From NCBI RefSeq assembly GCF_002854065.1, contig NZ_CP024147.1: DNA of 64,000 nt. One strand, given 5' to 3'. Source of the DNA: Escherichia coli (GTDB lineage: Bacteria > Pseudomonadota > Gammaproteobacteria > Enterobacterales > Enterobacteriaceae). Position 1 is the stretch's first letter; every line of letters starts with the position of its first letter. Below the pieces are notes generated by a model. The model saw nothing but the letters and a program-made list of their open reading frames with translations. It was not told where the DNA came from and ran no database searches. Of this stretch, positions 55,985 through 57,535 are shown piece by piece. A program made the translations under genes and the position numbers.

Positions 55985-57535
55985 ATGCAACGTCGTGATT
56001 TCTTGAAATATTCCGTCGCACTGGGTGTGGCTTCAGCCTTGCCACTGTGGAGCCGTGCAGTCTTTGCGGCGGAACGCCCAACGTTACCGATCCCTGATTT
56101 GCTCACGACCGATGCCCGTAATCGCATTCAGTTAACTATTGGCGCAGGTCAGTCTACCTTTGGCGAGAAAACTGCAACTACCTGGGGCTATAACGGCAAT
56201 CTGCTGGGGCCGGCGGTGAAATTACAGCGCGGCAAAGCGGTAACGGTTGATATCTATAACCAACTGACGGAAGAGACGACGTTGCACTGGCACGGGCTGG
56301 AAGTACCGGGTGAAGTCGACGGCGGCCCACAGGGAATTATTCCGCCAGGTGGCAAGCGCTCGGTGACGTTGAACGTTGATCAACCTGCCGCTACCTGCTG
56401 GTTCCATCCACATCAACATGGCAAGACCGGGCGACAGGTGGCGATGGGGCTGGCTGGTCTGGTGGTGATTGAAGATTACGAGATCCTGAAATTAATGCTG
56501 CCAAAACAGTGGGGTATCGATGATGTTCCGGTGATCGTTCAGGATAAGAAATTTAGCGCCGACGGGCAGATTGATTATCAACTGGATATGATGACCGCTG
56601 CCGTGGGCTGGTTTGGCGATACGTTGCTGACCAACGGTGCAATCTACCCGCAACACGCTGCCCCGCGTGGTTGGCTGCGCCTGCGTTTGCTCAATGGCTG
56701 TAATGCCCGCTCGCTCAATTTCGCCACCAGCGACAATCGCCCGCTTTATGTGATTGCCAGCGACGGTGGTCTGCTACCTGAACCGGTGAAGGTGAACGAG
56801 CTGCCGGTGCTGATGGGCGAGCGTTTTGAAGTGCTGGTGGAGGTTAACGACAACAAACCCTTTGACCTGGTGACGTTGCCGGTCAGCCAGATGGGGATGG
56901 CGATTGCACCGTTTGACAAGCCGCATCCGGTAATGCGGATTCAGCCGATTGCTATTAGTGCCTCCGGTGCTTTGCCAGACACATTAAGTAGCCTGCCTGC
57001 GTTACCTTCGCTGGAAGGGCTGACGGTACGCAAGCTGCAACTTTCTATGGACCCGATGCTCGATATGATGGGGATGCAGATGCTAATGGAGAAATATGGC
57101 GATCAGGCGATGGCCGGAATGGATCACAGCCAGATGATGGGCCATATGGGGCACGGCAATATGAATCATATGAACCACGGCGGGAAGTTCGATTTCCACC
57201 ATGCCAATAAAATCAACGGTCAGGCGTTTGATATGAATAAGCCGATGTTTGCGGCGGCGAAAGGGCAGTACGAACGTTGGGTTATCTCTGGCGTGGGCGA
57301 CATGATGCTGCATCCGTTCCATATTCACGGCACGCAGTTCCGTATCTTGTCAGAAAATGGCAAACCGCCAGCGGCTCATCGCGCGGGCTGGAAAGATACC
57401 GTTAAGGTAGAAGGCAATGTCAGTGAAGTGCTGGTGAAGTTTAATCACGACGCACCGAAAGAACATGCTTATATGGCGCACTGCCATCTGCTGGAGCATG
57501 AAGATACGGGGATGATGTTAGGGTTTACGGTATAA
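55985..57535 (+). CDS. cueO: multicopper oxidase (cuprous oxidase), Tat-exported
   Basis: Track ORF 55946..57535 trimmed to the ATG at 55985 ([28 protein letters not shown] twin-arginine signal, 516 aa); HWHG and [13 protein letters not shown] copper sites; Met-rich insert. Confidence 0.95.

Follow-up and report, generated by a model that had tools for sequence, protein, structure and literature searches.

The methionine-rich copper-binding insert of CueO in Escherichia coli and the evolution of its loop length across the Enterobacteriaceae

Judged from its sequence, the segment studied here is the known methionine-rich (Met-rich) domain of the cuprous oxidase CueO. It is a feature already known in detail, and it is ordinary in the window, by which we mean the whole 64,000-nt stretch of E. 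coli DNA that was analysed (RefSeq assembly GCF_002854065.1, contig NZ_CP024147.1). The account that very probably explains it best is that of a Met-rich domain which acts as a barrier to phenols, recruits Cu(I), and carries a loop that evolves in length. Our own analysis contributes the identity of the segment, its composition, its pattern of conservation, and the distribution of indels and tandem repeats; the copper ligands, the effects of deletion and the role in recruitment come from published experiments. The main gains are corrections: the insert DNA is not a repeat tract, and no length variation was found in E. coli.

Results

The gene and its insert

The first-pass annotation had named the gene cueO and the segment the Met-rich copper-binding insert over the type-1 copper and substrate site, and DNA identity, Pfam, PDB matches and the literature all agree (PMC11494321, PMC6155172). 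The DNA of the gene is 100% identical to annotated cueO in two RefSeq E. coli genomes. Upstream of it lie speE and yacC, both on the other strand, and downstream lies gcd; E. coli K-12 has the same speE-yacC-cueO-gcd neighbourhood. Pfam recognizes Cu-oxidase_3 (1.3e-31), Cu-oxidase (1e-07) and Cu-oxidase_2 (7.5e-25), which are the three cupredoxin domains, and the protein matches solved CueO structures over its full length, with PDB entries at E=0. A twin-arginine (Tat) signal, MQRRDFLK..., is present at the N-terminus; it scores 21.1 bits against Pfam TAT_signal, slightly below the cut-off of 22.7 (E=2.9e-4). Crystallised mature CueO chains begin at residue 29. In the mechanical list of open reading frames, the cueO frame opens 13 codons further upstream, at a TTG.

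The residues expected of a multicopper oxidase are in place. The type-1 copper ligands H443, C500, H505 and M510 are invariant in all 81 aligned sequences (80 orthologues and the query, described below). The His-x-His motifs of the trinuclear cluster, HWH (101-103), HPH (141-143), HPFHIH (443-448) and HCH (499-501), can be read in the translation and are also among the invariant alignment columns. Compared with the crystallised K-12 protein (CueO or YacK; PDB 1KV7, 1N68, 3OD3, 3NT0 and 5B7E, with the deletion form in 2YXV/2YXW), the window protein has 4/516 differences (G61E, D165Y, V202M, S271N), all of them outside the insert, where the amino acids are identical. The DNA differs from K-12 by synonymous changes as well; in the 258-nt stretch around the insert, identity to K-12 is 98.5%. 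Cuprous oxidase activity and copper tolerance have been established experimentally for E. coli CueO with an identical insert (PMC11494321, PMC12510620).

Sequence related to cueO occurs in 5,424 of 5,426 complete E. coli genomes, and the other two are without any cueO match. Ten of the 5,435 cueO matches in the E. coli RefSeq collection sit on plasmid-labelled records. The exact protein of the window is on record as a multispecies Escherichia sequence found on 98 contigs.

Upstream of the gene, a perfect dyad lies between TTGACC and TATGCT, 45-75 nt from the cueO start (Table 1). It has the form of the operator of CueR, a MerR-type regulator, known from the cueO and copA promoters, and we take it to be a putative operator of this kind.

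The insert, which lies in domain 3, is as rich in Met and His as the first-pass annotation had claimed, with 14 Met (30%), 8 Gly and 5 His (11%) in 46 residues; elsewhere in CueO, over 470 residues, Met makes up 3.4% and His 3.8%. It has the highest Met count of all the 46-residue stop-free windows in the six frames of the 64 kb. It was also correctly described as intact, as it holds no stop and no frameshift, and its amino acids are those of residues 355-400 of the crystallised E. coli enzyme. The interval given for it, 57047-57185, was right as to the segment and one base too long: 46 codons make 138 nt, and the true end is 57184. The 446-residue CueO chains of PDB 2yxv/2yxw match the query in two stretches, the first of which ends at residue 356, a pattern that is consistent with engineered deletion of the insert segment.

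Structural work divides the insert in two. Its helix carries M355 and D360, ligands of Cu5, along with M358 and M362, ligands of the crystallographic Cu6, and M364, M368 and M376, ligands of Cu7; Cu5 is completed by D439 and M441 of domain 3 (PMC11494321). All four Cu5 residues are present in the window and are kept in 81/81 sequences. The loop that follows the Met-rich helix is disordered and without electron density in most crystal structures (PMC6155172, PMC12041951).

The runner-up in the scan for Met-rich windows has 9 Met and lies in an antisense frame of another gene, a 617-residue ORF at 48310-50163 on the minus strand of the window. By position and sequence, we suggest that this ORF is yacH. 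It contains a run of His and Asp, DWDDDDHDHHHHDDDNYHHHDGGHRDG, and its C-terminal part is made of tandem repeats, each about 33 residues long (SASPEQRQAVxEKMQTNPQxQQRREAARERIQ).

Table 1. Features at the cueO locus, in window coordinates.
Feature	Position	Strand	Basis
Putative cueO promoter region	55909..55940	+	TTGACC, perfect dyad CCTTCCC-N5-GGGAAGG (55913-55931), TATGCT
cueO, periplasmic multicopper (cuprous) oxidase	55985..57535	+	516 codons and stop; ORF, DNA identity, Pfam, PDB
Met-rich insert (Met-rich domain), CueO residues 355-400	57047..57184	+	composition; identity with crystallised CueO
Conserved helix of the insert, residues 355-379	57047..57121	+	no indels in 79/80 orthologues
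Antisense ORF overlapping the insert, 81 codons	57083-57328	-	mechanical ORF list
Variable Met/His/Gly/Asn loop, residues 380-400	57122..57184	+	gap-bearing columns, composition
Imperfect 9-nt doublet ATATGAATC/ATATGAACC, encodes NMNHMNH	57159..57176	+	repeat search
Codons D439-M440-M441, cupredoxin core, outside the insert	57299..57307	+	D439 and M441 complete the Cu5 site

Orthologues across the Enterobacteriaceae

One genome per species was scanned, which gave 80 Enterobacteriaceae loci from which CueO proteins were extracted and aligned (81 sequences with the query). Alignment of orthologues had been proposed as a check on the insert, and it does reveal variation: among the 80 species, the insert takes 27 different lengths between 18 and 75 aa. 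The rest of CueO, counted from the twin arginines, measures 468-470 aa in every species. Of the 106 gap-bearing alignment columns, two result from start-codon choice and four fall at residues 401, 421 and the C-terminus, and all the remaining ones lie inside the insert. Real variation is found at residues 378-400, as the gaps at residues 366-377 are single columns due to the Trabulsiella deletion described below.

The helix part, the first 25 residues, is constant in length and largely kept in sequence, free of indels in 79 of the 80 orthologues. Within it, M358, M362, M364 and M376 are 93-99% conserved across the 81 sequences. The Cu7 ligand M368 is kept in 59/81 and is Q, R, T, K or A in 21/81. 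The loop is characterized by its composition, which in the orthologues is 27% Gly, 24% Met, 18% His and 12% Asn. Met number and insert length are correlated (r=0.89), and in the 80 species the fraction of Met remains within 19-30% despite turnover of the sequence. E. coli is near the short end of the family, with only 15 of the 80 species having an insert of 46 aa or less.

Tandem Repeats Finder (TRF), run on the 80 orthologous cueO genes at a score of at least 50, reported 34 arrays in 27 species. The insert, with 10% of the bases of the gene, contains all of them, and at this score no array was found outside it in any of the 80 genes. Every period is in frame (15, 21, 24, 27, 30 or 45 nt). 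Kosakonia quasisacchari, for instance, has 2.9 copies of a 45-nt unit, K. arachidis 3.5 copies of a 24-nt unit and Yokenella 3.3 copies of a 27-nt unit. At the protein level, the units include HGNMN in Citrobacter, MMNMDHGQ in Kosakonia, 8-aa units in Raoultella/Klebsiella and 15-aa units in Kosakonia quasisacchari. Since the repeat units differ between genera, the expansions are independent. These orthologues share with the window protein the helix part, the copper ligands and the Met/His/Gly/Asn composition of the loop. They differ from it in having in-frame arrays, with TRF scores of 50-185 and copy numbers that vary between and within species, where the window has none.

Within-species variation is seen in Citrobacter freundii, where a 544-aa allele equals the common 539-aa allele plus exactly one 15-nt unit, GGCAATATGAATCAT (HGNMN). 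The two alleles are a repeat copy-number polymorphism within one species. Repeat-driven length change is thus real in Citrobacter, Kosakonia, Raoultella and Yokenella, and the first-pass suggestion that repetitive DNA makes the insert a plausible site of length variation is borne out for the family, with inserts of 18-75 aa and arrays in 27 species, but not for E. coli, as set out below. We infer slippage or unequal recombination as the mechanism of these length changes.

The opposite extreme is Trabulsiella odontotermitis, whose CueO is 489 aa long (locus 2501-3967). Its insert is cut to 18 aa, and the same copper ligands are present, including M355 and D360. The 489-aa form recurs in T. guamensis and in several strains of T. 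odontotermitis, which excludes an assembly error, and most of the domain can evidently be lost naturally. The Trabulsiella insert is the natural counterpart of the engineered E. coli deletion 361-396, which is still active (PMC11494321).

The function of the insert

Together with published experiments, these patterns suit the following account. The first 25 residues of the insert form a conserved amphipathic Met-rich helix, packed over the type-1 copper. Through M355 and D360, this helix provides half of the ligands of the labile Cu5, where Cu(I) is oxidised; the remaining ligands, D439 and M441, come from domain 3. The last 21 or so residues form a flexible Met/His/Gly/Asn loop. Helix and loop would exclude bulky phenolic substrates from the type-1 copper, which would make CueO specific for copper. 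They would also offer a large number of thioether (and imidazole) donors for the transient binding of Cu(I), which would extract it from strong chelates and pass it on to Cu5. The sequence of the loop would be unconstrained beyond its composition, and a loop with no fixed sequence requirement could grow and shrink as units of 15-45 nt are duplicated in tandem or deleted, in frame. The Escherichia insert is a short, non-repetitive 46-aa version of stable length.

The experimental side of this account comes from E. coli CueO and one relative. Deleting the Met-rich domain raises phenol oxidase activity about 33-fold, according to work cited in PMC11494321. With Cu(I)-BCA as substrate, 10-20% of the cuprous oxidase activity is left after deletion of the domain; activity is near wild type with electrogenerated Cu(I), and so is copper resistance in vivo (PMC11494321). 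The first-pass annotation had named an unchanged cuprous oxidase activity after deletion of the insert among the grounds for its refutation; in these published experiments, deletion does affect that activity with strongly chelated Cu(I). The same annotation had described the insert as gating the substrate site. This is accurate for phenolic substrates but not for free or weakly chelated Cu(I), for which the domain is not required (PMC11494321, PMC12041951). The domain instead helps recruit Cu(I) from strong chelators (PMC11494321, PMC12041951).

CueO of Hafnia alvei (PDB 8R4F; deletion 8R4H) has the same fold, the same Cu5, type-1 and trinuclear sites, and the same layout of a helix followed by a disordered loop (PMC12041951). 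Its match to the window protein spans residues 29-516. Its loop is 22 residues longer than that of E. coli and contains more Met, and its domain outperforms the E. coli domain as chelation strength rises (PMC12041951). A more distant comparison is the Thermus thermophilus multicopper oxidase, which has a Met-rich hairpin near the type-1 copper that differs in position, length and sequence; deletion of this hairpin does not raise phenol oxidase activity, unlike deletion of the CueO domain (PMC11494321).

The PcoA/CopA-type plasmid copper-resistance oxidases, CusF, CopC and Ctr1 have Met clusters too, and bind Cu(I) through thioethers in oxidising compartments. In position, length and sequence, their Met segments would differ from the CueO insert.

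One could instead imagine that the insert is mainly non-catalytic, and serves to load apo-CueO with copper, or to mature it, around Tat export, to dock a periplasmic copper partner, or to buffer copper. The authors of PMC11494321 raised these as possibilities, and the weak phenotype of the deletion in vivo leaves room for them under other conditions. The benefit of the domain in vivo is small in laboratory tests, both aerobic and anaerobic (PMC11494321, PMC12510620), so a selective role in nature is not demonstrated. We nevertheless consider a mainly non-catalytic role unlikely. Variants without the domain are still produced, metallated and active (PMC11494321, PMC12041951). In copper stress under anaerobic conditions, what counts is the catalytic site and not the Met-rich copper-binding domain (PMC12510620). 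Finally, the variable loop has no partner-specific conserved motif in the 80 orthologues.

A second possibility is that the insert works mainly through Cu6 and Cu7, as an obligatory relay from which Cu5 and the type-1 copper receive Cu(I) or electrons. As summarised in PMC11494321, both sites are occupied in Cu(I)-soaked crystals, and one earlier study found that mutations at Cu6/Cu7 lowered activity, with activity lost upon mutation. The strong conservation of M358, M362, M364 and M376 would also fit such a relay. We regard it as very unlikely all the same. The two sites were observed only in Cu(I)-soaked crystals of an inactive CueO variant, and the cuprous oxidase activity of Cu6, Cu7 and Cu6/7 mutants equals that of the wild type, whether in solution, on electrodes or in vivo; the double Cu5 mutant is dead (PMC11494321). 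Cu6 and Cu7 are dispensable, and Cu5, at the base of the insert, is the sole catalytic one of these sites (PMC11494321, PMC12041951). The orthologues point the same way, given the replacement of M368 in 21 of 81 sequences and a Trabulsiella insert without any Cu7 residues. Transient recruitment of Cu(I) by the domain as a whole, feeding Cu5, remains the reading we prefer.

Length of the insert in E. coli

The insert of E. coli could also be read as a hypermutable, repeat-driven site of length variation, similar to a contingency tract. There are grounds for the idea. The codons are of low complexity and rich in ATG, CAT/CAC and GGC, an imperfect 9-nt doublet is present (Table 1), and orthologues in other genera carry tandem arrays and differ in length; 27 of 80, all in other genera, have the tandem-repeat feature of a simple-sequence contingency locus. 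In the window insert itself, though, TRF found no array at a score of 30 or 24, and the DNA thus does not qualify as a tandem repeat. The sole direct repeats in it are the 9-nt doublet and a 15-nt pair of 80% identity, both from a search with a seed of 6.

The collection of E. coli genomes speaks against variation more directly. In a spread sample drawn from 5,431 E. coli records, 59 of 60 have the exact 258-nt span of the query, and there are no indels in the insert region of these 59 complete genome records. The sixtieth, strain L37, aligns with 44% coverage and 86% identity. Over the 258 nt, identity is under 95% in only 2 of the 5,431 records, one of them the garbled L37 pseudogene, so that indels of at least 13 nt can be present in at most two records. 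For smaller changes at the doublet, synthetic alleles with a 9-nt deletion and a 9-nt duplication were used as queries, such that any carrier would rank first. The top matches were instead of wild-type length, aligned with a 9-nt gap at 95.7% and 95.9% identity, and 0/5,431 records carry either of these alleles, which are the ones expected from slippage. In-frame indels of 3, 6 or 12 nt elsewhere in the insert are excluded by the sampling only, to a frequency of roughly less than 5%.

Protein lengths agree with the DNA. The insert is 46 aa in all five Escherichia species representatives, which include E. coli, E. albertii, E. whittamii and Escherichia sp. E1V33. Among the protein cluster members listed, 14/15 are 516 aa long and one is 529 aa, which by its length is as expected from a start at the upstream in-frame TTG. 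In sum, no within-species length polymorphism was found in E. coli among the 59 spans or, for the two 9-nt alleles, among the 5,431 records. The contingency-like reading is largely refuted for E. coli, and we consider it highly improbable.

Several candidates for length variants were considered and rejected. The cueO of L37 (positions 1447-2979 of the locus taken from NZ_CP034589.1) is annotated as a frameshifted pseudogene. Along its 1,551 nt it has 111 mismatches and 39 gap openings, through local assembly error or real decay, while the proteins of the flanking speE, yacC and gcd are normal. It is not an allele that differs in insert length. The protein search also gave CueO proteins of 470-471 aa and one of 500 aa; these are not insert deletions either, as the insert is intact and the changes, a deletion or a duplication with truncation, are in domain 2, on single metagenome contigs. 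Three CueO-like proteins close in sequence to that of E. coli (P0002, P0008 and P0012; two from ENA metagenomes and one from NCBI) have a deletion of 36-46 aa or a duplication of 47 aa in domain 2; each occurs on one contig only, and they are probably assembly artefacts.

That the Met/His richness is chance low complexity, or a by-product of an antisense gene, has a negligible chance of being correct: an antisense ORF does exist mechanically opposite the insert, but, given the Met frequency of the protein itself, 14 or more Met in 46 residues have a binomial probability of 2.4e-10, the composition is retained in 80 species despite turnover of sequence and length, the segment is resolved in protein crystal structures, and the RefSeq annotation under the match is cueO only. 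We rejected the antisense ORF as a gene, as it is unannotated and the sense codons account for its composition: ATG, read from the other strand, becomes the His codon CAT, and this makes the ORF His-rich.

Discussion

The diversity of the CueO Met-rich domain in general has already been noted in the literature. What the comparative result adds is a compact view of how a metal-capture loop evolves, with nearly all of the length change, and all of the tandem arrays, confined to the insert of an otherwise constant enzyme. The description of the insert as a gate can be updated to that of a phenol barrier combined with a transient Cu(I)-recruiting antenna that feeds Cu5.

It is tempting to speculate that the disordered loop is an evolutionary rheostat, in which gain and loss of repeats tunes the number of Met/His donors, and with it the stripping of Cu(I) from chelates, to the niche of each lineage. 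We put this forward as a tentative idea that is more doubtful than probable. Insert lengths do run from 18 aa in termite-associated Trabulsiella to 75 aa in plant-associated Kosakonia, and these extremes may have an adaptive meaning of this kind. Escherichia, for its part, may have been fixed at a non-repetitive 46 aa by purifying selection on length. The one-unit polymorphism of C. freundii and the Trabulsiella deletion are natural variants that could serve in tests of the chelation-strength model of the domain.
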